Below are positions 797-58,446 of a DNA stretch of 64,000 bases, piece by piece. The DNA is from Bacteroidales bacterium (GTDB lineage: Bacteria > Bacteroidota > Bacteroidia > Bacteroidales > P3): the NCBI GenBank assembly GCA_017469625.1, contig JAFUGA010000027.1, positions 7,628 to 71,627 on the forward strand, written 5' to 3'. Made by a program: the position numbers and the translations under genes. Numbering within the stretch: the stretch's first letter is position 1; each line of letters begins with the position of its first letter. The notes beneath the pieces are model-generated. The model did no database searches, was not told the origin of the DNA, and saw only the letters and a list, made by a program, of their open reading frames with translations.

Positions 797-2203
797 TTAC
801 TGTTGTTTTTTCTTAAAAGTTAATAAAGCACCCAAAGACGGCGAGTCCATAGGATTTTTCACTATCTTGCCCTCTGGGTTTATAAGTACAAAAGTAGGAA
901 AGGTTCTTATATGAAACTTCTCAAAAATATCGTAGTTATTATCAAAATAAACAAAATCCCACTTGTATTTGTTGCCAACTTTATTGTTTTTTATAAAGTT
1001 GTACATTTTTTCGTAATTATCAGAACAACAGATAGTAAGTACATCGCAATAGTCCTTTATAGAGTCGTAACAAAAATGCACTCCCTCCATTTCTTTCAAA
1101 GATATTTCTTGGTCAAATCTTATGAAACAAACTATAAGAGTTTTATCCTTTATGAACTTGTTTAGAGGTACTTTTTGTCCGTCTATATCTTTGACTTCTA
1201 AGTCTTTAATATCCGAATTTTCTGCATTTATATTGCTCAACACATCTACAAGATTTTGGGCTATTTGTTTGTGTGCTTCAAACTTTGTAATACCTACAAA
1301 CTGTTCTAACATCTGCAAAACCAACTTCCTATCAAAATAACCGTCCAAATACGCATCTTTCATTCCCTGCAAGAAGACAAACTCTCTAAATACCTCATTT
1401 TCCAATACTTTATCTCTACCCAAAGCATCGTTGAAAGCGTTGTAATTCTTGCTTGCCAACCAATTTTCAATATCTTTGCGTTTTATGTATTTGTAACCCT
1501 TTGAGAAATATTTGCTGAATATGTTTTTAAAACAGTCTGTGTAGGCTAAGTTGTTGTATAATATAGGCTTATGTGCAAAAAGAGAGTCTTTTAGGCTTGC
1601 TCTACTTTTTATAGCAAAGGCGTAATCAACATTTGCAACACTATATACAACATAGTTTTTTATATAATCGTTATCTTTGTAAATTTCTATAAGAGAGTCT
1701 TTTAAAGAATGTAAAGAGGCTATGGTAGAAGAGTCTTTAACAAACAACAATCTTTGATTATCAACTATAAAATCGTTCAACACCATATCCACGTCAAACA
1801 TAGGCAAATTTATACCGTCATACCTTTCCATAGTCAATGAACATGGAAGCACCTTACCGTATGCAAGCCCAAGCAAAGAATCTTCCTTAGATAGCGAAAA
1901 ATCATCTATTTGCAGATGATATTTTGTACCGGGTTTGGTTACAAAAGAGTAGGACATAAAATCTATTTTCACCACAACACTTCTTTCACCCGAAAGAGTT
2001 ATAGCAAAAGAAAACGTGCTATCCTCTTCGGATAATTTCAATACCTGTTCTTCTTTTTGTTTCTCTGAAATATCGTCCGCTATGGAATATAACTTAACTG
2101 CCTTACCCTTAATATCTTTGCCCTCTCCACTAATATACACGTTTTGGGCAAAAACCAAAGGTTGAACAGCAAATAATATTAAAACCAATAATAATTTTTT
2201 CAT
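797..2203 (-). CDS. secreted protein with C-terminal thioredoxin-fold (TlpA/redoxin-like) domain lacking CxxC
   Basis: 468 aa. Signal peptide MKKLLLVLILFAVQPLVFAQ. C-terminal region (LIVCFIRFDQE...TFPTFVLINPEGKIV) resembles a redoxin fold, but no CxxC is present at the expected position. Confidence 0.5.
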   Translation of the reverse strand: MKKLLLVLILFAVQPLVFAQNVYISGEGKDIKGKAVKLYSIADDISEKQKEEQVLKLSEEDSTFSFAITLSGERSVVVKIDFMSYSFVTKPGTKYHLQIDDFSLSKEDSLLGLAYGKVLPCSLTMERYDGINLPMFDVDMVLNDFIVDNQRLLFVKDSSTIASLHSLKDSLIEIYKDNDYIKNYVVYSVANVDYAFAIKSRASLKDSLFAHKPILYNNLAYTDCFKNIFSKYFSKGYKYIKRKDIENWLASKNYNAFNDALGRDKVLENEVFREFVFLQGMKDAYLDGYFDRKLVLQMLEQFVGITKFEAHKQIAQNLVDVLSNINAENSDIKDLEVKDIDGQKVPLNKFIKDKTLIVCFIRFDQEISLKEMEGVHFCYDSIKDYCDVLTICCSDNYEKMYNFIKNNKVGNKYKWDFVYFDNNYDIFEKFHIRTFPTFVLINPEGKIVKNPMDSPSLGALLTFKKKQQ

Positions 2204-2207
2204 ACTA

Positions 2208-2215
2208 CAAAGATA
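2208..2215 (-). promoter_or_regulatory. Bacteroidota -7 promoter box TATCTTTG (TAnnTTTG), 4 nt upstream of the ATG at 2203
   Basis: Plus strand reads CAAAGATA, so the minus strand reads TATCTTTG. This matches the TAnnTTTG consensus of Bacteroides-type sigma-A promoters. Confidence 0.4.
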
Positions 2216-2425
2216 ATATATTTTTTTCTAACAGCAACATATAAAGCGAATAAATGCTCAAAAAAATATTCTTTGATTAGAAAATATAGATAACTGTTGT
2301 AATATGTAATATCTTAATATTAAAGTATTTATATACTATAATTAAATGTGCTTCTTCACCAATATACTTATAACCAACAAAATTACTACCATAGGAAAAT
2401 AACCCCATACTCTATTATGCATAAA

Positions 2426-2698
2426 CAAAATTTCGCTCGTGTGTAACTTTGTTTTAATTTTCTATCTCTTTGTTTTAATTTCACGAAACAAAGAAAGAGA
2501 ATTCTAAAACTTTGTTTTAATTTTCTGAAACGAAGAGATAGAAAGTTAGAATCAAGTTCTACGAAATTAAAACAAAGTTCTACAAAAATAGAATAAAGAG
2601 ATAGAATTTTAAAACGAAGTTACATACGAGCGAAACAAAGTTTTGCGAGCGTGAAACAAGACTTTGTGAGATTAAAATCAAGTTTTATTTTATTCGGG
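2426..2698. repeat. phased 21-bp repeat array, copy A (13 units, about 200-bp palindromic core)
   Basis: Parses without gaps into 21-mers starting at 2426, 2447, 2468 ... 2678, e.g. CTTTGTTTTAATTTTCTATCT, CAAAGTTCTACAAAAATAGAA and TAAAGAGATAGAATTTTAAAA. Segment 2431-2457 is the reverse complement of 2609-2635 at 25/27 positions. Confidence 0.9.
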
Positions 2699-2854
2699 TC
2701 TTACAGGTCAGCAAAAACTTTAAGGAGTTTAAAATAAAAACAAAATTTGGTAAATTTTTTTTTGTGTCTAATAGTTTGATAATCAAAGAATAGACTTAAA
2801 ATTCTCTTTCACCCACAAAAAAAAATCAACAAAAAACGTAACCTTAAAGACGAA

Positions 2855-2905
2855 AAAAACGTACCAAACAAACATTGCTTTGTGCAGTTTGTTTGGTACG
2901 TTTTT
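2855..2905. terminator. perfect 19-bp stem hairpin with flanking A/T runs (bidirectional terminator-like), core of a longer palindrome 2824-2930
   Basis: AAAAACGTACCAAACAAAC (2855-2873), a 13-nt loop, then GTTTGTTTGGTACGTTTTT (2887-2905). Outer arms AATCAACAA...TTGTTGATT extend the pairing. Confidence 0.4.
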
Positions 2906-3388
2906 CAGTCAAAGGTTAAACTTGTTGATTTTCATTATTTTCCGATTTTTCACAAAATTTTCATTTTTTAGGTTTTTACTACTGTTAAAACTTTGTGCAG
3001 AAATACAGTAACATAATAAAATTTTTACTCTGAAACATAAAAATCAAATTGTTTTCATTATCTTATTATTATACTGTGTTTTGTAGAGATATTATCTTTT
3101 GATAATAAACTCTTTTTTAAGAATAACTATGTTATTTTTTAATAAACTCTATAAGTTTAATTCTTTTATAGTTAGTTATTTACAAAGTTTAACTAAAGTA
3201 GTACTTTATGTAAATCTTGTAATATATCTGTAATATAGTGAATTAACTATTTTTATTTTAACAATATATCTTAAAAAATAACTTATAACATTATAAAACA
3301 ATCGTTTATATTGATTACCTCAAGTAAATTACTTTAGGTAAACCTTGTAACATATATGATAAACAAGTAATTAACTTTTTTTTACTTA

Positions 3389-5230
3389 CTATTCTTTTTC
3401 TGTATGGTAAAAATTCCAAACCTTTAGAGCTTTGCTTTTGCCGATACAGTCTGTTAAGGATTGTAGAGTAGCAATTTTTATCTTCTCTACAGAAGAGAAT
3501 TTTAGCAATAAATCTCTCGCTGTTTTTTCTCCTATACCCTCTATATCTGTAAGTTGTGTCTTAAAAGTGGCTTTGCTTCTCTTATCTCTATGGAACGTTA
3601 TACCAAATCTATGAGCCTCGTCCCTTATATGCTGAATTATTTGCAGAGTATGGCACCTTTTGTCCAAACAAATAGGTATTGGGTCGTTTGGAAAATAAAT
3701 CTCTTCCAATCTTTTTGCCAAGCCTATGACGGTAACCTTGTCCAAAACACCGGCTTTTTTCAATGCCTCGCAAGCACTGTGCAACTGTCCTTTTCCTCCA
3801 TCTATTACGATAAGGTCTGGCAAAGGTTTGCCCTCGTTTTCCAAACGTGAATACCTCCTATAGACTATCTCACGCATAGAAGCGAAGTCATCGGGTCCTA
3901 CAACTGTTTTTACGTTGAAATGTCTGTACTCTTTGTTTGACGGTTTGCCCTCACGGAAGACAACACAAGAGGCAACAGGGTTAGTTCCTTGAATATTAGA
4001 GTTATCAAAGCATTCTATATGATGTGGAGGTTTTTCAAGGTGAAGGTCTTTCTGCATCTCCAAAACAACTTTATTGCTCCAACGTTCAGGGTCAAGTATC
4101 TTGGCTTTTTTTATCTTTTGATTTCTGTAAAACAATGTGTTATGCAAAGAAAAATCCAAAATCTTTTTCTTCTCACCAGAAAGAGGTACAGTCTGCAAAA
4201 CATAGTCTTTTGGTAAATCTAAATACTCTGGTACTATGATTTCTTTGCTCAGCCACCCTTTGTCTATACGGTTCTGAACTATAGCCATAGTAAAGGTTTC
4301 CAAAGCAGAAATATCAAGTTTCTTTTCTATACTTACAGAAAATGAAGTGTTTATCTTGCCCTCAACAACCTTAGTCATATTCATATATATCTTGTCGCTG
4401 TCGTCTATAAAAGAGTAACATTCTATCTCTTTCACGGTGTTGGAAACTATGGCACTCATAGCCGAATAGTTTTCCAACAAGGTTATCTTCTCTTTTATTT
4501 GCTGGGCTTTTTCAAACTGTAGTTTGTCGGCGTATTCCATCATCTTGTCTTTCATTTCATTGAGATAAGAAGAGAAATTGCCCTTGATTATCTGTCGTAT
4601 TCCGTTTATTTCCTTATGGTATTCCACTCGGGATTGTTCGCCTGTGCAAGGGGAAAGACAAAGTCCTATTTGTGCATTCAGACAAGAAGAGTATTTGCCC
4701 TTGTTTATGCTTTCTTCTGTAAGAGGTAGGTTACAAGTGCGGTAAGTGAAAACTCTACGAATTAGGCTCAAAAGTTCTTTAAGTATCTTACCACTTGGAT
4801 AAGGTCCATAATACTGAGAACCGTCTTTGACTTGATGTCTTGTAGAATAGATTTTAGGAAACTCTTCGTTGGTAATCCTTATCCACGGATAAGTTTTGTC
4901 ATCTTTGAGCATTATGTTATACTTTGGTTGAAACTTTTTTATAAGGTTGTTCTCCATAAGAAGAGCCTCTGTTTCAGTATTAACATGTATGAATTTTATA
5001 TCCGCAATCTTTCTTACAAGTATCTGAGTTTTAAGACTATGCTGTGTATCGTTGCGAAAATAGGATAGTACTCTTGCTTTCAGATTTTTTGCCTTGCCTA
5101 CATAGATTATCTTCCCATTCTTGTCAAAATACTGATACACTCCCGGAGTAGATGGTAAAGAGGCAAGAATGGGAAGAATGTGTTGATTGTAAGGGTTGTT
5201 CTCAAGAATTTTGTATGGATTATTTAGCAT
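3389..5230 (-). CDS. uvrC: excinuclease ABC subunit C
   Basis: 613 aa. GIY-YIG motif (GVYQYFDKNGKIIYVGKAKNLKARV), central UVR/endonuclease region, C-terminal helix-hairpin-helix (IEGIGEKTARDLL). Confidence 0.95.
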   Translation of the reverse strand: MLNNPYKILENNPYNQHILPILASLPSTPGVYQYFDKNGKIIYVGKAKNLKARVLSYFRNDTQHSLKTQILVRKIADIKFIHVNTETEALLMENNLIKKFQPKYNIMLKDDKTYPWIRITNEEFPKIYSTRHQVKDGSQYYGPYPSGKILKELLSLIRRVFTYRTCNLPLTEESINKGKYSSCLNAQIGLCLSPCTGEQSRVEYHKEINGIRQIIKGNFSSYLNEMKDKMMEYADKLQFEKAQQIKEKITLLENYSAMSAIVSNTVKEIECYSFIDDSDKIYMNMTKVVEGKINTSFSVSIEKKLDISALETFTMAIVQNRIDKGWLSKEIIVPEYLDLPKDYVLQTVPLSGEKKKILDFSLHNTLFYRNQKIKKAKILDPERWSNKVVLEMQKDLHLEKPPHHIECFDNSNIQGTNPVASCVVFREGKPSNKEYRHFNVKTVVGPDDFASMREIVYRRYSRLENEGKPLPDLIVIDGGKGQLHSACEALKKAGVLDKVTVIGLAKRLEEIYFPNDPIPICLDKRCHTLQIIQHIRDEAHRFGITFHRDKRSKATFKTQLTDIEGIGEKTARDLLLKFSSVEKIKIATLQSLTDCIGKSKALKVWNFYHTEKE

Positions 5231-9698: not shown

Positions 9699-9909
9699 TA
9701 AAGTTTCGTTTTCTTGTAACTTTATTTTGAAAATTCTCTTTCTTTGTTTCGCTATTCTGAAACTTTGTTTTAGAATTCTATCTCTTTGTTTTAATTTTCT
9801 ATCTCTTTGTTTTAGAAAATTAGAATCAAGTTCTACGAAATTAAAACGAAGTTCTACAAAAATAGAATAAAGAGATAGAAAATTCTTTCTTTGTTTTAGA
9901 AAAATGAGA
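9699..9909. repeat. phased 21-bp repeat array, copy B (about 10 units)
   Basis: Units start at 9720 (22 nt), then 9742, 9763, 9784, 9805, 9826, 9847, 9868 and 9889. Examples: CTTTGTTTTAATTTTCTATCT, TCAAGTTCTACGAAATTAAAA, CGAAGTTCTACAAAAATAGAA. Confidence 0.9.
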
Positions 9910-12645: not shown

Positions 12646-13869
12646 ATGAAAAAAGTTATAATCTTCACACAACCTTTACGCATCAATTTTGGAGGAATAC
12701 TCCAAGCCTATGCTCTTCAAAAGACAGTAAGAGATTTAGGTTTTGATGTTATAACAGATAATCCTACTTTGAGAAGAAGATCTTTAATAGTTATATTAAA
12801 AGACTATGCAGCAAGGTTCTTTTATGGAGTTTTGAAAAACGATGACAAATATAAACCTTTTTTCAAAAAACGAGTGAAAAAAGAAGATTATGAAGTTATA
12901 TCTCGTAATCCTCAGAGGTTTATAAAAGAAAATATAAGGACTGTAGATTTTTTTTGCGGAAAACGACATCCTGATAAAAACAAAATAAAACAATACGATA
13001 TATATATAGCAGGTAGCGACCAAGTTTGGCGAAGAAGATATGCAGATGTTAAAAGATATTTCTTTGATTTTTTGGACGATGATTCTATAGATAGATTTTC
13101 TTATGCGGCTTCTTTTGGAGTAGATAATTTGAACGAGTATTCATTGGAAGAAAAGCAGATTTGCAAACAACTTGTTAAGAAATTCAAAGCCGTAAGCGTT
13201 AGAGAGTCCTCTGCAATAGATATTTTGAAAAAAGAGTTTGACCAAGAGGCAGTCTTGGTTTTAGACCCTACTATCCTATTGACAAAAGAGGATTATCTAA
13301 AACTTTGTTCTAATTTTTTAGAATCAAGTTCTACAAACGTAGAATCAAGTTTTAGAAAATTAAAACAAAGTTCTACAAACGAAGAAAAAGGAGATAAAAA
13401 ACGTATGTTTTGTTATGTCCTTGACCAAACAGAACAGACGGGTACTTTGACAAAAAAACTTGCTACTTATTTAAATATGGATACTGAGGGTGTAGGAGTT
13501 AAAGAAAATGTAGATTCAAAAGCCGAAGATATAACCCAATATATACTTCCAGATGTAGAGAAATGGATAATGATGTTTGATGATAGCGATTATATCTTTA
13601 CGGATTCTTTTCACGGTACAGTATTCTCCATTATTTTCAATAAACCTTTTGTAGTCATAATCAATAAAATAAGAGGTGGTTCAAGGTTGTATTCTTTGCT
13701 TTCTTTGTTAGGGTTGGAGGGTAGGATAATAAATTCTGAAGAAGATTTGACAGAGGAGTTTCTAAATCATCTTTACGATATAGATTACGAAAAAGTAAAT
13801 AAAAAGAAAGAAGAACTAAGAGAGTTTTCTTTGAATTATCTTAAACGTGCTTTAGGAGTAGAAGAATAA
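12646..13869 (+). CDS. polysaccharide pyruvyl transferase carrying an in-frame 21-bp-repeat insertion
   Basis: 407 aa. GGILQAYALQKTV, IAGSDQVWRR and TDSFHGTVFSIIFNKPF motifs shared with the paralog at 26694-27898. An extra segment SNFLESSSTNVESSFRKLKQSSTNEE is encoded by repeat units. Confidence 0.8.
   Translation: MKKVIIFTQPLRINFGGILQAYALQKTVRDLGFDVITDNPTLRRRSLIVILKDYAARFFYGVLKNDDKYKPFFKKRVKKEDYEVISRNPQRFIKENIRTVDFFCGKRHPDKNKIKQYDIYIAGSDQVWRRRYADVKRYFFDFLDDDSIDRFSYAASFGVDNLNEYSLEEKQICKQLVKKFKAVSVRESSAIDILKKEFDQEAVLVLDPTILLTKEDYLKLCSNFLESSSTNVESSFRKLKQSSTNEEKGDKKRMFCYVLDQTEQTGTLTKKLATYLNMDTEGVGVKENVDSKAEDITQYILPDVEKWIMMFDDSDYIFTDSFHGTVFSIIFNKPFVVIINKIRGGSRLYSLLSLLGLEGRIINSEEDLTEEFLNHLYDIDYEKVNKKKEELREFSLNYLKRALGVEE
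13303..13386. repeat. phased 21-bp repeat array, copy C (4 units, inside a CDS, in frame)
   Basis: CTTTGTTCTAATTTTTTAGAA / TCAAGTTCTACAAACGTAGAA / TCAAGTTTTAGAAAATTAAAA / CAAAGTTCTACAAACGAAGAA. These are the same unit types as the intergenic arrays. Confidence 0.85.
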
Positions 13870-18455: not shown

Positions 18456-19610
18456 ATGAAAATTTTAGTAACAGGAGCCAAAGGTTTTGTAGGCAAAAAC
18501 CTTGTAGCACAACTGCAAAACATAAAGCAGGAGAAAGCAAGATGGTATTCAGTTTCCAAAGATATAGATATATATGAATACGATATAGATTCTACAGAAG
18601 AGGAACTTGATAAGTATTGTAGGGATTGTGATTTTGTTTTCCACCTTGCAGGAGTCAATCGTCCAAAAGAACAAAAAGAGTTTATGGAAGGTAATTTTGG
18701 TTTTACAGATACACTGTTAAACACTCTGAAAAAACACAAAAATACTTGTCCTGTAATGATTTCCTCTTCTATTCAGGCACTTTTGGATAACCCATACGGA
18801 GAAAGCAAAAGGGCAGGAGAGAACCTAATGCGAGAATACTCTAAACAAACAGGTGCAAAGGTTCTTATATATCGTTTTCCTAATGTTTTCGGTAAGTGGT
18901 GCAAACCAAACTACAACTCAGCCGTTGCTACATTTTGCAACAACATAGCAAACGATTTGCCTATACAAGTAAATGACCCTAACGTTTTGATGCACTTGGT
19001 TTATATAGATGATGTGGTAGATGAACTTATTTCAGCACTTTCCGGTAATGAAAACAGAGAGGGAGATTTTTGCAAAGTAAAGGTAGAACACGAGATAAAA
19101 TTGGGTGAGATAGTAGATTTGATAAAGATGTTTCGTTCTCAGAGTGAAACACTTATTGTACCCGAAATGGCAGAAGGAAGTTTTGAGAAAAAATTATATG
19201 CTACCTACCTATCTTATCTGCCAAAGGAGAAAGTAAAGTTTCCTTTGAAGATGAACACAGACGCAAGAGGCAGTTTTACAGAACTGTTAAAGACTAACAA
19301 ATGCGGACAATTCTCTGTCAATGTTTCAAATCCTGGAATTACAAAAGGAGAACATTGGCACAATACCAAGTGGGAATTTTTTATAGTAGTATCCGGCCAC
19401 GCTCTTATAGAGGAAAGAAAGATAGGAAGCGAGGAGGTAATAAGTTTTGAAGTAAGTGGAGATAAACCAGAGGCTGTTCATATGTTGCCGGGTTATACTC
19501 ATAATATTACTAACCTTAGTAAGACAGAGAAACTTATAACTCTTATGTGGGCAAATGAACTCTTTGACCCACAAAGACCAGACACCTATTTTGAAAAAGT
19601 AAATATGTAA
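18456..19610 (+). CDS. fnlB: UDP-L-FucNAc pathway reductase/epimerase FnlB/CapF (SDR + C-terminal cupin)
   Basis: 384 aa. Near-collinear with remembered S. aureus CapF: TGAKGFVGKNL, HLAGVNRP, SSSIQA..DNPYGESK, FGKWCKPNYNSAVATFC, LYATYLSYLP, PGITKGEHWHNTK, MWANELFDPQRPDTYF. Confidence 0.9.
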   Translation: MKILVTGAKGFVGKNLVAQLQNIKQEKARWYSVSKDIDIYEYDIDSTEEELDKYCRDCDFVFHLAGVNRPKEQKEFMEGNFGFTDTLLNTLKKHKNTCPVMISSSIQALLDNPYGESKRAGENLMREYSKQTGAKVLIYRFPNVFGKWCKPNYNSAVATFCNNIANDLPIQVNDPNVLMHLVYIDDVVDELISALSGNENREGDFCKVKVEHEIKLGEIVDLIKMFRSQSETLIVPEMAEGSFEKKLYATYLSYLPKEKVKFPLKMNTDARGSFTELLKTNKCGQFSVNVSNPGITKGEHWHNTKWEFFIVVSGHALIEERKIGSEEVISFEVSGDKPEAVHMLPGYTHNITNLSKTEKLITLMWANELFDPQRPDTYFEKVNM

Positions 19611-19619
19611 AAATAAAAC

Positions 19620-19808
19620 TTTGTTTTAATTTTCTAAAACTAAGAAAGAGATTTCTAAAACTTTGTTTTAATTTCGTAGAACTTGATTCTAATTTTCTAA
19701 AACGAAGAGATAGAATTCTAAAACAAAGTTCTACGAAATTAAAACAAAGAGATAGAAAATTAAAACAAAGTTCTACAAAAATAGAATAAAGAGATAGAAA
19801 AATAAAAG
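19620..19808. repeat. phased 21-bp repeat array, copy D (9 exact-register units) between fnlB and fnlC
   Basis: CTTTGTTTTAATTTTCTAAAA / CTAAGAAAGAGATTTCTAAAA / CTTTGTTTTAATTTCGTAGAA / CTTGATTCTAATTTTCTAAAA / CGAAGAGATAGAATTCTAAAA / CAAAGTTCTACGAAATTAAAA / CAAAGAGATAGAAAATTAAAA / CAAAGTTCTACAAAAATAGAA / TAAAGAGATAGAAAAATAAAA. Confidence 0.95.
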
Positions 19809-31012: not shown

Positions 31013-31077
31013 CCCATAAACACACAATAAAATAAAGAAATTCTTACTCTTTTAACTGAAATATAAAAACTTTATCT

Positions 31078-31085
31078 TAACTTTG
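31078..31085 (+). promoter_or_regulatory. internal -7 promoter box TAACTTTG within the polysaccharide locus
   Basis: TAnnTTTG match in the 219-bp gap, directly abutting repeat array E and 146 nt upstream of the ATG at 31232. Confidence 0.35.
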
Positions 31086-31090
31086 CAGAA

Positions 31091-31195
31091 CTTTATTTCG
31101 TGTTTCTATCTCTTTGTTTTAATTTTCTCTTTCTTTGTTTTAGAAAATTAAAACAAAGCTTTAGAAAAATAGAATAAGGTTTTAGAAAATTGTAA
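31091..31195. repeat. phased 21-bp repeat array, copy E (5 units)
   Basis: CTTTATTTCGTGTTTCTATCT / CTTTGTTTTAATTTTCTCTTT / CTTTGTTTTAGAAAATTAAAA / CAAAGCTTTAGAAAAATAGAA / TAAGGTTTTAGAAAATTGTAA. Confidence 0.85.
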
Positions 31196-31231
31196 CTTTA
31201 TTATATAAATATATAACTGTGTTTTAACTTA

Positions 31232-32170
31232 ATGGCTTTAATAAGTGTAATTGTTCCTATATACAAAGCAGAAGATTATATAAGAAGATGTGTTGAGAGT
31301 ATTTTATCTCAGACGTTTGAGGATTTTGAACTACTGCTTGTAGATGATGGTTCGCCCGATAATAGTGGTGAGATATGCGAGCAGTATACACTAAAAGATA
31401 GTAGAGTAAAAGTTATACACAAACAAAACGGAGGAGTAGCCTCTGCAAGACAAGAGGGACTAAACCATTCCACAGGAACATACACCATACATGCAGACCC
31501 AGACGATTGGGTAGAGAAAACGTGGTTGGAAGATTTGTACTCCAAATCCCAAGAGATAGAAAACGGAGCCGATATTGTAGTTTGCGACTATTATTTTGAT
31601 ACAGAAAAAAAATCTACAATCTTTTCTCAAAAACCAGAGGAAGAAACACCGCAATCTTTCCTTGATGGAATGGTGAGAGATAAACATTTAGGAGCCTTAT
31701 GGAACAAACTTATAAAACGTTCCTGCTATGAGAGATACGGCATCTTTTTTGAAAAAGATTTGAACTATTGTGAAGACTTTCTTGTTTGCGTAAAACTATT
31801 GTTACATAACGATGTAAAACTCCTATATTTAGATAAACCACTCTACCATTACGACCAGATAGTGAATAAACTTGCTTATACAAAGACCTATTCTCAAAAG
31901 ATACATTCGTATGACTGTATGCTTATGGAGATACTAAAACCTATGCTTACCAAACCTCTGTACGATGCTCGTATATATGTTGTGGCTTATAAAGAATTTA
32001 ATTCTAAGATGCTGACTTCAAAAGAGTTCAAAGCCAAATATTTTTCTATGAAAAACATTCTTTGGAAAGAATCTCCTATGAAGTTGAAACTCTTTATGTA
32101 TTTTTCGGCTTGTGGTTTTATGTTCATATTAAGACCTATTTATAGCCTATTTCAGAAAATAAAAAATTAG
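31232..32170 (+). CDS. glycosyltransferase family 2 (paralog group a)
   Basis: 312 aa. ISVIVPIYKAEDYIRRCVESILSQTF, LLLVDDGSPDNSGEICE and ADPDDW motifs. The 5' ~150 nt are about 90% identical to 27918-28901 by eye. Confidence 0.85.
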   Translation: MALISVIVPIYKAEDYIRRCVESILSQTFEDFELLLVDDGSPDNSGEICEQYTLKDSRVKVIHKQNGGVASARQEGLNHSTGTYTIHADPDDWVEKTWLEDLYSKSQEIENGADIVVCDYYFDTEKKSTIFSQKPEEETPQSFLDGMVRDKHLGALWNKLIKRSCYERYGIFFEKDLNYCEDFLVCVKLLLHNDVKLLYLDKPLYHYDQIVNKLAYTKTYSQKIHSYDCMLMEILKPMLTKPLYDARIYVVAYKEFNSKMLTSKEFKAKYFSMKNILWKESPMKLKLFMYFSACGFMFILRPIYSLFQKIKN

Positions 32171-37778: not shown

Positions 37779-37883
37779 TATTGTTTCGTTCTCGTAAAGC
37801 TTTGTTTTAATTTTCTAAAACAAAGAGATAGAAAAATAAAACAAAGTTCTACAAAATTAAAACAAAGTTTCGCTGAAGCAAAA
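37779..37883. repeat. phased 21-bp repeat array, copy F (5 units)
   Basis: CTTTGTTTTAATTTTCTAAAA (37800) / CAAAGAGATAGAAAAATAAAA / CAAAGTTCTACAAAATTAAAA / CAAAGTTTCGCTGAAGCAAAA, preceded by a TTTCGTTCTCGTAAAG terminal-type unit. Confidence 0.85.
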
Positions 37884-37952
37884 CAAAATCTTATGTTTTT
37901 ATAATATAAGATAGACAAGGTACGTTAATAAGAAGATAGTATAAAATACAGA

Positions 37953-43805: not shown

Positions 43806-44070
43806 GAAACTTTGTTTTAGATTTATAAAAAGGTATTTTCGGACAAAAATATATTCTTTTTAGAATACTAAAAGGTATTTTAGAACACTATTTTTTAACT
43901 TTATTATTACAAAGTTTTCCTTGAATTTTCTAACTCTTTATTCTAATTTTCTAAAACGAAGAGATAGAAAATTAGAACGAAGTTCTACAAAATTAGAATC
44001 AAGTTTTAGAAAACTAAAACAAAGAGATAGAAAATTAAAACAAAGTTCTACAGAATTAAAACTTTGTTTT
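43806..44070. repeat. phased 21-bp repeat array, copy G (6 clean units at 43936-44061 plus a degenerate upstream part)
   Basis: CTTTATTCTAATTTTCTAAAA / CGAAGAGATAGAAAATTAGAA / CGAAGTTCTACAAAATTAGAA / TCAAGTTTTAGAAAACTAAAA / CAAAGAGATAGAAAATTAAAA / CAAAGTTCTACAGAATTAAAA. Confidence 0.85.
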
Positions 44071-44091: not shown

Positions 44092-44133
44092 GAAAACAAA
44101 CAAGATGATTTTATAAAAATCTTGTTTGTTTTC
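44092..44133 (-). terminator. rho-independent terminator downstream of the Sel1-repeat gene
   Basis: Perfect 15-bp stem GAAAACAAACAAGAT (44092-44106) / ATCTTGTTTGTTTTC (44119-44133). A T-run follows on the minus strand. Confidence 0.75.
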
Positions 44134-47445: not shown

Positions 47446-48798
47446 TTATATGCCACTGCCAAAACCCTCTGTCATTTTGTCAGTAAAAAAATTAACTATA
47501 TTATTAAACTCATTTCCCCTTATATATCCTCGTTTTCTTTTGTTTAGATAAACCTCTTGCAATATTCCCTTATCAATTAACCCTATTATATCCGTTTTGG
47601 CTGTTGTAGGAGTAATGGAAAATTTGGTTTGAATATCCTTTACCGTAATTATTTCCTCAGGTTCATCAACAAACATTTGTATTATTTGAGATTGTCTTTC
47701 GTTAATGTTTCCTATTTTCAAATACTTTTTTGAGAAGAGTTTCTCGTTCTGTTTCTTTTGAATATACTCCTTGAGTTGTTGAAAAGACTGTTCTAATACA
47801 TTTAAATTATAATCAATGAAATATCCCAAATCCATATCATCGTTTTCAGTGTATAGAAATGACTTTTCATATTGTTTTTTAGATTTTGCAATAACACGAG
47901 ATATTGATAAATATTCTGTCATCCAATATCCCTATTTCAACATATACCAATAAAATAATGCTCTTGCAGTACGACCATTACCGTCTATAAATGTGTGAAA
48001 ATAACTTACCATAAAATGTATAATTATTCCTCTAATTACAGGGAGGATAAAATGTTTTTTATTTTCATCATTAAAATAATCGCAAAGGTCTTTTGCAAAT
48101 TCTGGAATTTTCTCTGCAGATGGTGGAGTATGGACAATTTCACTTTCCATTACATTATATACAACAACGTCATCATCTTCTTTCCTAAATCTACCAGCAT
48201 CTTCTGTATTTTCCAAAGTATTTTCTGTTATCAATTTATGAATTTTTAACAACAGTTCAACAGATAATGATTCGTTTTTATGGTCAGATATAAATTGTAT
48301 AGTTTTGTAGTTATTGACTATCATCTGTTGGGATTTGCCTTTTGGCTTTTTATTTTTTAGTAGCATTTCTTTTGCAACTTCTCTTGTTGTAATAGCCCCT
48401 TCCATTATACTTGAATAAATGGCTTCTTCCATCAAAGAACTTCTCAGGTATTGTTTTTTATTCTCTATGGAAATATCTGGCTGATGTATCCAAGCCTGTC
48501 CAAAATTCATATCAAATTCATGACAGAGTCTTTCCATTTTATTAGTGAAACCATAATGAACTTTGTATTTGTCCCAAGAATAAACAGTTTTCAGGATACG
48601 AGATACCTTAACCCTCTTCCACAATTCCTCATTAGAAAATCCTTTTGGACATTGTTTATATTTTACAGTATTCCAATATTCATAGTTATCGTTAATTTTA
48701 TCTATGAGAACATTTATTTCCTCATTACTTCTGTATCCATCATTTAAAAATAACCTACTATAATCCGTTTCTAATAACTTTGGTGTTTGCTCTATCAT
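47446..48798 (-). pseudogene. Fic-family protein interrupted by one in-frame TAG (Fic catalytic part plus separate C-terminal winged-helix part)
   Basis: The upstream ORF carries the inhibitory-helix motif SSIMEG and the Fic motif HTFIDGNGRTAR, then reads ...YWYMLK-TAG-GYW-MTEYLSISR... in the same frame. The stop codon is at 47932-47934. Confidence 0.8.
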
Positions 48799-53176: not shown

Positions 53177-53345
53177 CGAAGTTACATTCCTCACAGAACT
53201 TCGTTTTAGTTTTCTATCTCTTTGTTTTAATTTTCTAAAACTTCGTTTTAATTTCATAGAACTTGATTCTAATTTCACGAAACAAAGTTTTAGAATTCTA
53301 TCTCTTTGTTTTAATTTTGTAGAACTTTGTTTTGTAAAAGTAGAA
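53177..53345. repeat. phased 21-bp repeat array, copy H (8 units) between convergent genes
   Basis: Units start at 53199, 53220, 53241, 53262, 53283, 53304 and 53325. Examples: CTTCGTTTTAGTTTTCTATCT, CTTTGTTTTAATTTTCTAAAA, CTTCGTTTTAATTTCATAGAA, CTTGATTCTAATTTCACGAAA. The array ends flush with the stop codon of the 53346 gene. Confidence 0.9.
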
Positions 53346-58202: not shown

Positions 58203-58254
58203 ATCTTATACATTATTATGTATATGTGTGTAGTAAAATTTCATTTTTCTAACT

Positions 58255-58401
58255 CTTCGTTCTTTTTTCACGAAACAAAGTTTTAGATTTCTATTTCTTT
58301 GTTTTAATTTCACGAAACTTTGTTTTAGAATTCTATCTCTTTGTTTTAGAAAATTAAAACAAAGAAAGAGAAATTTAGAATCAAGTTTTATTTTACTGAT
58401 A
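58255..58401. repeat. phased 21-bp repeat array, copy I (7 units)
   Basis: CTTCGTTCTTTTTTCACGAAA / CAAAGTTTTAGATTTCTATTT / CTTTGTTTTAATTTCACGAAA / CTTTGTTTTAGAATTCTATCT / CTTTGTTTTAGAAAATTAAAA / CAAAGAAAGAGAAATTTAGAA / TCAAGTTTTATTTTACTGATA. Confidence 0.9.
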
Positions 58402-58446
58402 TTTTATTTCGTTGTGGTATAATATTCATATTTTACAAAAATATTG

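Follow-up and report, generated by a model that had tools for sequence, protein, structure and literature searches.

A strictly phased array of 21-nt units between uvrC and an ahp gene in a Bacteroidales genome: probably one locus of a REP/BIME-like mosaic repeat

BOX of Streptococcus pneumoniae and the intergenic mosaic elements of Neisseria are modular, consist of few sub-unit types, and vary in the number of their central units. BOX has the arrangement boxA-boxB(n)-boxC, while the Neisseria elements are composed of RS units flanked by dRS3; in unit size and architecture both differ from the arrays described here. To our knowledge, no dedicated transposase has been assigned to either group. 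In Enterobacteria and Pseudomonas, the corresponding literature concerns REP sequences, BIME clusters and REPINs (PMC2817692, PMC3733652; bioRxiv 10.1101/2021.07.10.451892). A further element, BrickBuilt of Porphyromonas gingivalis, is a minisatellite-bearing MITE; its tandem units lie between a leader and a tail that are both non-repetitive, and it has IS5-like TIRs (Klein et al. 2015, PMC4596501).

The locus analyzed in this study lies at positions 2426-2698 of the window, i.e. the whole 64-kb stretch of DNA under examination. Direct reading of the sequence, a repeat search and a lattice parse revealed that it is composed of 13 units of 21 nt, arranged without gaps (12 units up to position 2677, followed by a degenerate 13th). 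Every unit opens with a C-WWW-G-like pentamer (the centre), which is followed by a 16-nt spacer. The orientation of the units changes from forward-type to reverse-type, and it is because of this switch that the array forms a palindrome. The components of the array are as follows:

2426..2698, unstranded: the array, 13 units of 21 nt without gaps
2426..2446, + strand: unit H2, forward copy (CAAAA-TTTCGCTCGTGTGTAA), the left 'TIR' of an earlier note on this DNA; about 17 copies of H2 genome-wide
2431..2481, + strand: left arm of the long inverted repeat (pair I1), 51 nt, 86% complementary to 2585-2635
2585..2635, + strand: right arm of the long inverted repeat (pair I1, repeat search)
2615..2635, - strand: unit H2, reverse copy (CGAAG-TTACATACGAGCGAAA), the right 'TIR' of the earlier note
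2636..2656, - strand: unit H1, reverse copy (CAAAG-TTTTGCGAGCGTGAAA); H1 is the usual neighbor of H2 in other arrays
2657..2698, unstranded: two degenerate units in which the 21-nt phase is kept; the module ttaatctcacaaagtcttg... recurs at other arrays

The symmetry reported in the earlier note was borne out: the segment 2431-2457 (TTTCGCTCGTGTGTAACTTTGTTTTAA) matches the reverse complement of 2609-2635 (TTTCGCTCGTATGTAACTTCGTTTTAA) at 25 of 27 positions, and the two arms, separated by 103 nt, mirror each other around position ~2533 (2532 in the note). The lattice extends past the arms, by one unit on the left (2426-2446) and by three on the right (2636-2698), the latter having been recognized previously and being in 21-nt phase; in a sister strain it continues for seven units beyond the right arm. 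The proposed capacity for hairpin or cruciform formation is supported by the predicted fold, which, whether computed for DNA or for RNA, is 8-11 SD better than that of shuffled sequence, the control suggested in the same note: (i) as DNA, -55.8 kcal/mol, while the shuffled controls gave -26.95 +/- 3.52 (z -8.2; none of 200 controls folded equally well) and (ii) as RNA, z -11.3 for the + strand and z -9.6 for the - strand. When the whole window was compared with Rfam, a tRNA alone passed the gathering score; the uvrC-ahp gap yielded sub-threshold look-alikes of miRNA hairpins. The array had also been described as the largest repeat copy, which holds within the window, but not genome-wide, since arrays of 14-17 units are present elsewhere.

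The array is placed in a gap (2204-3388) of 1185 bp, with a G+C content of 23% and without any ORF of at least 50 aa, in agreement with the earlier description of non-coding 21-bp units in a 1.2-kb, ORF-free, AT-rich region beside uvrC. This gap and its borders contain the following features:

797..2203, - strand: gene of an AhpC/TSA-like thioredoxin-fold lipoprotein (ahp; Pfam scan); the distance from its start to the array, which is upstream, is 223 bp
2208..2215, - strand: putative -7 promoter box TATCTTTG, adjoining the ahp start codon and conserved in G009, the nearest sequenced congener
2742..3310, unstranded: second, unrelated non-coding repeat module of ~570 bp, 87% identical to positions 85595-86159 of contig C41
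3315..3383, unstranded: third repeat family, ~69 bp, with ~10 genomic copies, immediately past the uvrC stop codon
3389..5230, - strand: uvrC (Pfam scan); the array lies ~690 bp downstream of its stop codon

We take TATCTTTG to be the -7 promoter box of Bacteroidota (consensus TAnnTTTG). It abuts the ahp start codon, and therefore the inserted DNA is located upstream of the putative promoter. Among the unit types, TAnnTTTG occurs in H2 only (TAACTTTG, 2444-2451), without a suitably spaced TTTG upstream. A scan of JGI metagenomes with the Ahp-like protein revealed no relative. The ~570-bp module includes a palindrome (2855-2905), and its copy in C41 likewise adjoins a 21-nt array. Gene conversion from this paralogue was considered as the origin of a hyper-diverged patch (2951-3170) and rejected, as the version found in the other strain is no closer to C41.

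The genome, which comes from a rumen bacterium, is a 99%-complete MAG of 65 contigs, the shortest of 2990 bp. A search with the conserved core gave 1527 matches, which fall into 288 mostly intergenic arrays (13 are located inside crude ORF calls). In total, the family comprises ~2316 units and 48.6 kb, i.e. 2.05% of the genome. A single 21-nt phase is maintained in 277 of the 288 arrays, and in 190 of the 195 that contain both orientations. The unit consists of a 5-nt symmetric centre (C-WWW-G) and 16 nt. Its core of 10-11 nt (CTTTGTTTTAA) is conserved, whereas its other half varies among a few types, namely TTTTCTATCT, TTTCGTAGAA, TTTCACGAAA and two that are richer in G+C, H1 and H2. The commonest centres are CTTTG/CAAAG (57%). 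The centre is its own reverse complement except for the middle three bases; therefore forward and reverse units can adjoin without loss of phase, and a long imperfect palindrome arises where a series of forward units gives way to reverse ones. One third of the arrays contain units of a single orientation and fold weakly. H2 is usually paired with H1 (the conserved pair GTTTCACGCTCGCAAAACTTTGTTTCGCTCGTGTGTAAC is present at 12 loci), and in several arrays (in contigs C11, C41, C46 and C48) it is flanked by ordinary units on both sides. We found no description of this strictly phased repeat in the literature searched. Arrays are also carried by 18 of the 130 contig ends of the MAG, and are present at one synteny breakpoint between species.

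Taken together, it is probable that 2426-2698 is one locus of a genome-wide REP/BIME-like mosaic repeat built on a strict 21-nt lattice, and not a discrete transposon. Eight sister arrays were identified in the window:

9721..9909, unstranded: 9 units (repeat search, lattice parse)
13282..13386, unstranded: 5 units, within a pyruvyl-transferase ORF (lattice parse)
19598..19807, unstranded: 10 units, at the fnlB-fnlC junction; the orthologous site of G009 holds a 4-unit array in its own dialect
31049..31237, unstranded: 9 units (lattice parse)
37800..37904, unstranded: 5 units (lattice parse)
43873..44061, unstranded: 9 units, identical in the diverged strain
53199..53345, unstranded: 7 units; +63 bp (3 units) and one flipped centre in the diverged strain
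58234..58422, unstranded: 9 units; +21 bp (1 unit) in the diverged strain

The uvrC-ahp locus was compared in four assemblies, which represent two strains diverged by ~2% (the alignment of the window included L019 and L021). One insertion point was mapped within the array:

2650..2651, unstranded: +84 bp in the diverged strain, exactly four units

On either side of these 84 bp there is a direct repeat of 18 nt, GCGAG(C/T)GTGAAACAAGAC. All four arrays compared are present in both strains and differ in unit number only, the length differences (+84, +63 and +21 bp) corresponding to whole units. Such gains and losses may result from slippage or unequal recombination between units. The flipped centre (CAAAG in the window, CTTTG in the diverged strain) was seen in one array, and a single loop inversion distinguishes the strains at an ordinary terminator hairpin; both could be products of hairpin-mediated template switching. 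A strain-variable Fic/HTH cassette has no flanking arrays.

An 18-mer of the family occurs in 206 copies in this genome vs 0-1 in each of 21 congeners, and variants are patchily distributed in the bacterial family, having been found in 31 genomes out of 261. The locus thus belongs to a dispersed family amplified in one species. In the arrays of G009, 27 of 40 units have CGAAG/CTTCG centres and none has CTTTG/CAAAG, and its own dialect (AAAACGGCGTTTT) was confirmed. Seven of its 10 arrays occupy gaps orthologous or adjacent to those occupied here, a comparison that covers 10 loci of one congener whose genes are ~75% identical in DNA. The intergenic positions of the arrays are thus shared by congeners, but each species has its own dialect of unit sequences, which has taken the place of the others. 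This replacement at fixed sites may proceed by gene conversion among arrays or by turnover in place. Positional orthology with G210, a member of another genus, was limited to 2 of 9 sites, which is not over background.

At the uvrC-ahp site itself, G009, the only syntenic relative, lacks the array, so that the empty site sought in the earlier note exists: its gap measures ~55-70 bp vs 1185 bp, a difference that spans three repeat families. G009 lacks the whole 1.1 kb, with at least two further repeat families, and so this is not a clean excision footprint. Judging from this single comparison, the site was probably filled only once this lineage and its nearest sequenced congener had separated.

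Most likely, the arrays represent tolerated DNA, predicted to form hairpins, at the 3′ side of transcription units; like REP/BIME elements, they may affect transcripts that read through them or serve as binding sites of a host protein. Their maintained position and short-range exclusion (see below) suggest more constraint than expected of a purely tolerated repeat.

An alternative that we regard as possible, although rather unlikely, is that the arrays serve a host system in cis, with phased binding sites, one per two helical turns, for a co-evolving DNA-binding protein. This protein might be a nucleoid organizer, a supercoil or domain barrier, or an insulator of transcription units; position and spacing would then be under selection, and 2426-2698 would be one such site. 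The exact 21-nt period is retained through orientation switches, and the core, containing GTTTTA/TAAAAC, is constant across dialects and genera, whereas the centres vary. The conservation of 7/10 sites between such distant congeners points in the same direction. Array loci are also over-dispersed (spacing CV of 0.52 vs 0.76-0.88 for random choice among eligible gaps). Adjacent eligible gaps less than 3 kb apart are both occupied in 1-2 cases vs 16-28 expected (p 1e-7 to 1e-10), while pairs 3-8 kb apart are as frequent as expected; a weaker depletion of close pairs was observed in another genus. Moreover, congeners without this family (e.g. G017) carry unrelated families with a period of 21-22 nt. 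Against this reading, (i) no candidate protein was found, (ii) unit number and sequence turn over rapidly between strains, (iii) individual sites are dispensable, as the empty uvrC-ahp gap of G009 indicates, and (iv) only one dyad half of each unit is strongly conserved. Furthermore, the exclusion could stem from recombinational loss of close pairs or an effect resembling transposition immunity, and may partly reflect the 3-kb contig cut-off of the MAG. Unit orientation is at best marginally related to replication (rho -0.13, p 0.05). We propose only tentatively, and with low confidence, that these arrays, together with the unrelated 21-22-nt families of sister species, are cis-elements of an undescribed chromosome-level system of Bacteroidales, acting as short series of binding sites, spaced by two helical turns, for a host protein that co-evolves rapidly. 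If so, sites inherited at fixed intergenic positions, re-written in each species and kept at least ~3 kb apart would be boundary or anchoring sites, and not selfish repeats.

A role at the RNA level, in which the arrays would be 3′-end hairpins that terminate transcripts or shield them from exonucleases, as proposed for REPs, seems less probable still. It would agree with the distribution of the arrays, which occupy 71 of 194 convergent gaps (37%), 33 of 202 divergent gaps (16%) and 147 of 1393 tandem gaps (10.5%), as defined by crude ORF calls, and which lie closer to the end of the upstream gene (median 99 nt) than to the start of the downstream one (240 nt). The strong RNA fold predicted for both strands is compatible with such a role, and the lack of strand bias in tandem gaps (273 forward vs 307 reverse units) suits a palindrome, whose action would be independent of orientation. 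However, separate canonical hairpins are present beside the arrays (2855-2905, and ~44107-44118 near array 43873-44061), and the single-orientation third of the arrays folds weakly. The stems are A/U-rich and have no T-tract, and a terminator scan of 2100-3500 found no terminator. The exact 21-nt phase and the exclusion would also be left unexplained.

The earlier note had likened the locus to a non-autonomous mobile element with MITE-like TIRs. As a classical, discrete MITE bounded by TIRs, it would depend on mobilization in trans by a transposase, of the DDE or another type (unassembled, lost, or encoded by another replicon). We consider this very improbable. The array is small (273 bp), non-coding and multi-copy (288 arrays), has long inverted repeats and a strong predicted fold, and the high copy number is confined largely to one species. 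A 15-nt inverted repeat, TTTCACGAAAC-WWW-G, forms the borders of many sub-elements of 25+21n nt (the commonest, of 88 nt, in 22 copies). That G009 has an empty site is compatible with insertion, and BrickBuilt provides a precedent for a MITE carrying a minisatellite (PMC4596501). Nevertheless, TIRs at true ends and target-site duplications are absent, and no cognate autonomous IS was found in the MAG with the four Pfam families searched. H2, the supposed terminus, is an ordinary internal unit, and the lattice passes both arms. We also considered H1/H2 or TTTCACGAAA units as true element termini, and rejected them, since they are followed by further lattice units; the sequences beside them revealed no conserved flank. 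Coverage by BLAST copies is ~500 inside the array and 1-15 in its flanks, and no leader or tail segments of the BrickBuilt type were found there. No target-site duplication was detected at this copy, where AAACAAA on either side is part of the unit itself, or across the family: when the +/-6 nt around the lattice ends of 277 arrays were searched for direct repeats, the longest had a mean length of 4.28 nt vs 4.19 +/- 0.07 for shuffled pairings. Strains gain or lose units, not whole arrays, and array sites are inherited across species.

The search for a mobilizing enzyme in the MAG, which covered four Pfam families, was similarly negative, and a transposase or recombinase with matching ends, for which the note had suggested a search, was not found. 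A six-frame search gave no match to Y1/RAYT (PF01797) at E <= 0.01, while 6 of 14 control genomes were positive, and no rve transposase (PF00665) was detected. PF01609 identified one IS982-like DDE element, split across the ends of contigs C44 and C61; the DNA around it is free of unit motifs. In favor of a MITE, IS copies are often missing from MAGs, and this one is itself fragmented. The two tyrosine recombinases found with PF00589 are XerC/D-like. There are no transposases among the multi-copy proteins of this genome. Genes flanked by arrays on both sides, as a REPtron-like mobilizer would be, were rejected as candidates, since no nuclease or transposase is among them, their identities having been assigned by reading the sequences (gyrB, glyA, and genes of a PIF1-like helicase, a HerA-like ATPase, a symporter, a WYL-domain protein and a small lipoprotein). 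A scan of IMG/VR with the 26-nt hairpin core yielded no match, vs 50 copies in the host genome, and so gave no indication that a phage acts as vector.

Invertons are common in gut Bacteroidales, and the 51-nt inverted repeats do surround a short segment (103 bp) 223 bp upstream of a surface-type gene, but an invertible promoter switch of the lipoprotein gene, with these repeats as recombination sites, is scarcely credible, as all four assemblies (two strains) show a single orientation, the repeats are generic family units found at ~280 loci, there is no invertase gene nearby, the putative -7 box abuts the ahp start and is conserved in G009 without the array, and 2482-2584 contains no TAnnTTTG box.

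One strictly phased repeat makes up about 2% of this genome and one third of the longer intergenic regions in it. Even as mere REP-like passengers, the arrays account for most of the strain length variation in the regions compared, and they are able to insert into genes in frame, because 21 nt equals seven codons. If position and spacing were selected, this would point to a new DNA-binding or chromosome-organizing system in dominant gut and rumen bacteria, and would make REP-like function testable in a lineage without RAYTs. For annotation, inverted repeats alone are insufficient to classify such palindromic arrays as MITEs.

Of the systems described to date, BOX and the Neisseria mosaics share with the arrays a strong fold-back potential; we know of no strict two-helical-turn lattice or short-range exclusion described for either. 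BrickBuilt resembles the arrays in being intergenic, dispersed and limited to a species of the Bacteroidales, and in having short tandem units without spacers (23 nt vs 21 nt here), whose number varies by locus and strain. In contrast to the arrays, it is present in ~19 copies (~280 loci here), and its bricks are direct repeats only, whereas both orientations occur here, with no leader or tail and no IS with matching ends.

The similarity to REP/BIME is more extensive. In common with them, the arrays (i) consist of short, imperfectly palindromic units in hundreds of copies, (ii) are extragenic, located mainly on the downstream side of genes, in convergent or co-directional gaps, with a preference for 3′ and convergent positions, (iii) form regularly spaced mosaics of alternating orientation (195 arrays with both) and (iv) have a species-specific sequence, persist vertically at orthologous sites and occasionally lie within genes. 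On the other hand, the units are A+T-rich, while REPs are G+C-rich; the gap-free 21-nt lattice is strict and its vocabulary small; and unit number changes in whole units between strains, with exclusion below 3 kb. There is neither an associated RAYT (Y1 HUH) gene in this genome nor a general GTAG/CGTC tag, GTAG being found in one unit type only (…TTTCGTAGAA) and lacking from the commonest units. With no RAYT or other candidate mobilizer found and no general tag, the arrays do not belong to REP proper, and they are best read as an undescribed mosaic repeat of the REP/BIME-like kind.

The array at 2426-2698, which the earlier note described as a MITE-like repeat copy, is composed of 13 gap-free units of 21 nt (12-13 by lattice extension). 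The sequence itself was as reported: 2431-2457 agrees with the reverse complement of 2609-2635 in 25 of 27 bases, and the arms are 51 nt each (2431-2481 and 2585-2635; 86% complementary), separated by a 103 nt spacer. Folding of 2426-2700 as ssDNA yielded -55.8 kcal/mol versus -26.95 +/- 3.52 for dinucleotide shuffles (z -8.2), and RNA folding of the stretch gave z -11.3 (+ strand) and z -9.6 (- strand). The AT-rich gap (2204-3388; 1185 bp, 23% GC) contains no ORFs of at least 50 aa and is flanked by uvrC and a gene encoding an AhpC/TSA-like lipoprotein (ahp), both on the minus strand. The observation is confirmed. Its interpretation as a MITE is supported only in part. The GC-richer units of the array (types H1 and H2) are located as follows:

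2426-2446, + strand, forward H2 unit
2615-2656, - strand, reverse H2 followed by reverse H1; two degenerate units come next

The genome holding the window (G000; 2.37 Mb, 32% GC, 65 contigs, here numbered with the prefix C, 99% complete) contains 1527 matches to the core CTTTGTTTTAA (at most 1 mismatch), which form 288 arrays of at least 2 units, i.e. approximately one array per 8 kb. Lattice extension raised this to ~2316 units (48.6 kb; 2.05% of the genome), with a median of 8 and a maximum of 17 units per array. The presence of gldH assigns the genome to Bacteroidota. All cores share a single 21-nt phase in 277 of the 288 arrays, and one phase is also kept in 190 of 195 arrays of mixed orientation. 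Each unit consists of a C-WWW-G pentamer plus 16 nt; the pentamer is self-reverse-complementary except for its middle triplet, and forward and reverse units therefore stay in register. The most frequent spacers, TTTTAATTTTCTAAAA and TTTTAGAAAATTAAAA, are mutual reverse complements, which allows another reading of the lattice, with palindromic arms (TAAAAC / GTTTTA) that enclose 3-nt and 6-nt 'loops' occurring in both orientations. There are few kinds of alternative left halves (TATCTC, TAGAAC, CGAAAC).

The proposed terminal inverted repeats proved to be internal units. The sequence TTTCGCTCGTGTGTAA, found ~17 times (at most 2 mismatches), is the H2 unit, which is usually preceded by H1 (TTTCACGCTCGCAAAA), and in arrays of C11, C41, C46 and C48 the H1-H2 pair lies amid ordinary units on either side. 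Units of the type TTTCACGAAAC-WWW-G, commoner than H2, bound sub-elements of 25+21n nt (most frequently 88 nt; 22 copies); these were rejected as true termini, since in many cases the lattice runs past them too. The arrays have no target-site duplication: close to the lattice ends, the longest direct repeat has a mean length of 4.28 nt, versus 4.19 +/- 0.07 nt when right flanks were shuffled among arrays; the AAACAAA on either side of the target array is part of the unit itself. No conserved leader or tail was detected, the copy number falling from ~500 within the target array to 1-15 in its flanks.

The search of the genome for a matching autonomous element revealed no Y1/RAYT and no rve transposase. 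The sole DDE transposase detected is IS982-like and split over contig ends (C44:31500-31939 and C61:1-340), and the unit motifs were not found in the surrounding DNA. The two tyrosine recombinases of the genome are both XerC/D-like, its multi-copy proteins are secreted or are lipoproteins, with no transposases among them, and the genes with arrays on both sides encode only housekeeping functions (gyrB, glyA, helicases, a symporter), a WYL protein and a small lipoprotein. The hairpin core had no match in IMG/VR, and only generic hairpin look-alikes in Rfam.

One multi-copy family comprises small lipoproteins of 130-149 aa with a common signal peptide, MKH(L/F)RKLPIILTLAGLTLFIACNNDDDE, and most of its copies directly adjoin a 21-nt array:

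C8:36257-36649, C8:1277-1669, C19:400-813, C19:12753-13145, C25:49-441, C13:419-868 and C55:1217-1633, small-lipoprotein copies

An inverted overlap of 1850 bp (99.8% identity) links contigs C55 and C56; it is either a duplicate made by the assembly or a genuine repeat.

Changes in the arrays were followed using contigs from other metagenome assemblies that encode an identical UvrC or neighbouring protein. In a diverged strain (contigs L019, L021 and L029; about 2% from the window), all four comparable arrays are present, and in three of them the length difference is divisible by 21:

2426-2698 (target array), +84 bp in the diverged strain, four units flanked by an 18-nt direct repeat
53199-53345, array, +63 bp in the diverged strain
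58234-58422, array, +21 bp in the diverged strain

The target array also carries 8 substitutions between the strains, two of which turn CAAAG into CGAAG, a position that defines the species-specific unit sequence (dialect). In one unit of array 53199-53345 the sole difference is a flip of the centre (CAAAG versus CTTTG). Unit indels and flips are thus observed directly; judging from sequence, slippage and hairpin-mediated template switching would be their probable causes. Around 44107-44118, an ordinary hairpin resembling a terminator (GAAAACAAACAAGAT...ATCTTGTTTGTTTTC) likewise has its loop inverted, reading GATTTTATAAAA in the window and approximately its reverse complement in the other strain, which indicates that mutation by inversion of palindrome loops is ongoing in this species.

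Other differences between the strains were noted. The patch 2951-3170 shows 84% identity, versus 94-99% on either side; conversion from the C41 paralogue was rejected as its source, the diverged version being no closer to the C41 copy. The segment 42185-43739 (1.55 kb) is swapped for about 0.7 kb, its first breakpoint being ~130 bp from an array. The segment 47490-48907 is also strain-variable, and a Fic and HTH gene pair (47446-48798) is missing from the diverged strain; this cassette has no flanking arrays.

Two properties of the family as a whole merit attention: its positions are conserved with re-written sequence, and arrays exclude each other at distances below 3 kb. Regarding the first, the 18-mer CTTTGTTTTAATTTTCTA occurs 206 times here versus 0-1 times across 21 congeneric species, and its variants (1 mismatch allowed) are patchily distributed: of the 261 genomes in the bacterial family, 31 have them, among these G009 (15), G007 (19) and G210 (49). 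In the closest relative, G009 (uvrC about 75% identical in DNA), the arrays have the same 21-nt lattice in another dialect, with CGAAG/CTTCG/CGGCG centres and AGTTAG replacing AGATAG; CTTTG/CAAAG centres account for none of 40 in G009 versus 57% in G000. Seven of the ten G009 arrays nevertheless lie in a gap orthologous or directly adjacent to one with a G000 array, such as the array of the fnlB-fnlC junction (window 19598-19807); another is unclear, two lack a counterpart, and the remaining gaps of the same 5-kb G009 loci hold no G000 array. From this replacement of dialect at conserved sites we infer that units are probably homogenised within species. Against a different genus, 2 of 9 array sites overlap, which is not above background.

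Congeners without this family have others of the same period, as in G017, where an unrelated dispersed family has the palindromic core CATAATGGCATTATG (65 matches, ~30 loci, spacings of 21, 22, 43 and 44 nt), not found in G001, G015 or G009. A G+C-rich dispersed repeat of 21-nt period (AAAACCCTGCCGGCCTTTTGG / AAAACTCCGGCGGCCTTTTGG; 34 matches over several contigs) was also observed in G508, from another family of the same order. Examples are:

G017 C1:250872-250952, CATAATGGCATTATG repeat, about 470 bp past the 5' end of uvrC
G508 C2:145562-145633, G+C-rich repeat

At a synteny breakpoint between G009 (loci L046 and L038) and G000 (C41, C9 and C15), one G009 array lies at the junction, and both loci separated there carry a G000 array (C41:196643 and C9:103657). 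Rearrangements may thus have arrays as their markers or mediators.

Of the convergent junctions 37% hold an array, as do 16% of the divergent and 10.5% of the tandem ones; crude ORF calls place 13 within ORFs. In tandem junctions they lie a median of 99 nt from the end of the upstream gene (versus 240 nt from the start of the downstream gene), with no orientation bias relative to transcription; bias relative to GC skew is marginal at most. Any biological effect may involve hairpin formation, the ends of transcripts or the binding of a protein.

On contigs of at least 30 kb, array loci are spaced at a median of 7.2 kb (CV 0.52), with just 3.5-3.8% of spacings below 3 kb. When the same number of gaps was drawn randomly from eligible gaps (residual length cut-offs of >= 50 to >= 300 bp; 300-500 trials), the CV was 0.76-0.88 (lowest 0.68) and 15-29% of spacings were below 3 kb. 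Where two neighbouring eligible gaps were separated by less than 3 kb, both were occupied in 1-2 cases versus 16-28 expected (p 1e-7 to 1e-10, on crude gene calls), whereas for pairs 3-8 kb apart observed and expected numbers agree. Partial data for G210 point in the same direction (4 spacings below 3 kb versus 10.6 expected, p 0.012). As to the cause of the exclusion, the spacing may be under selection, close pairs may collapse through recombination, or insertion may be subject to an immunity-like effect. Since the shortest contig of this MAG measures 2990 bp, any segment enclosed by two arrays that break the assembly would drop out, but arrays at contig ends (18 of 284) are too few to account for a ten-fold deficit.

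In G009 the uvrC-ahp gap is just ~55-70 bp, with the gene order GT2-ahp-uvrC kept; the site therefore either gained its content in the G000 lineage or lost it in G009. The extra 1.1 kb includes the array, a module of ~570 bp and a 69-bp family. The non-coding module (2742-3310) has an 87% identical paralogue at C41:85595-86159, which also adjoins a 21-nt array but faces the other way with respect to the downstream gene. The module contains a ~105-bp palindrome (19-bp perfect stem, 2855-2873 / 2887-2905), and 113 bp of it match C41:125252-125364 at 97% identity. The ~69-bp repeat (3315-3383, directly after the uvrC stop codon, and 3180-3253; ~10 genomic copies) includes the near-palindrome TACCTCAAGTAA-A-TTACTTTAGGTA and often shares gaps with 21-nt arrays (C41, C46, C63, C24). 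The -7-type box of ahp, TATCTTTG, lies 4-5 nt upstream of the annotated ATG in both species (window 2208-2215, minus strand; L011 4459-4470), which places the inserted DNA upstream of the predicted promoter. Such a position suggests either an ahp mRNA with almost no leader or a start codon further downstream than annotated.

Phased arrays of this kind were not found described for Bacteroidales in our literature search. The family is not REP proper, having neither a RAYT nor a GTAG or CGTC tag, and it differs from BrickBuilt (PMC4596501) in the absence of a leader and tail with IS-like TIRs. The evidence fits a relative, in kind, of the REP/BIME/REPIN repeats, with which it shares palindromic units, high copy number, an extragenic 3'-side position and mosaic clusters, as well as a sequence specific to the species and vertical inheritance at sites that are orthologous (PMC2817692, PMC3733652, bioRxiv 10.1101/2021.07.10.451892).
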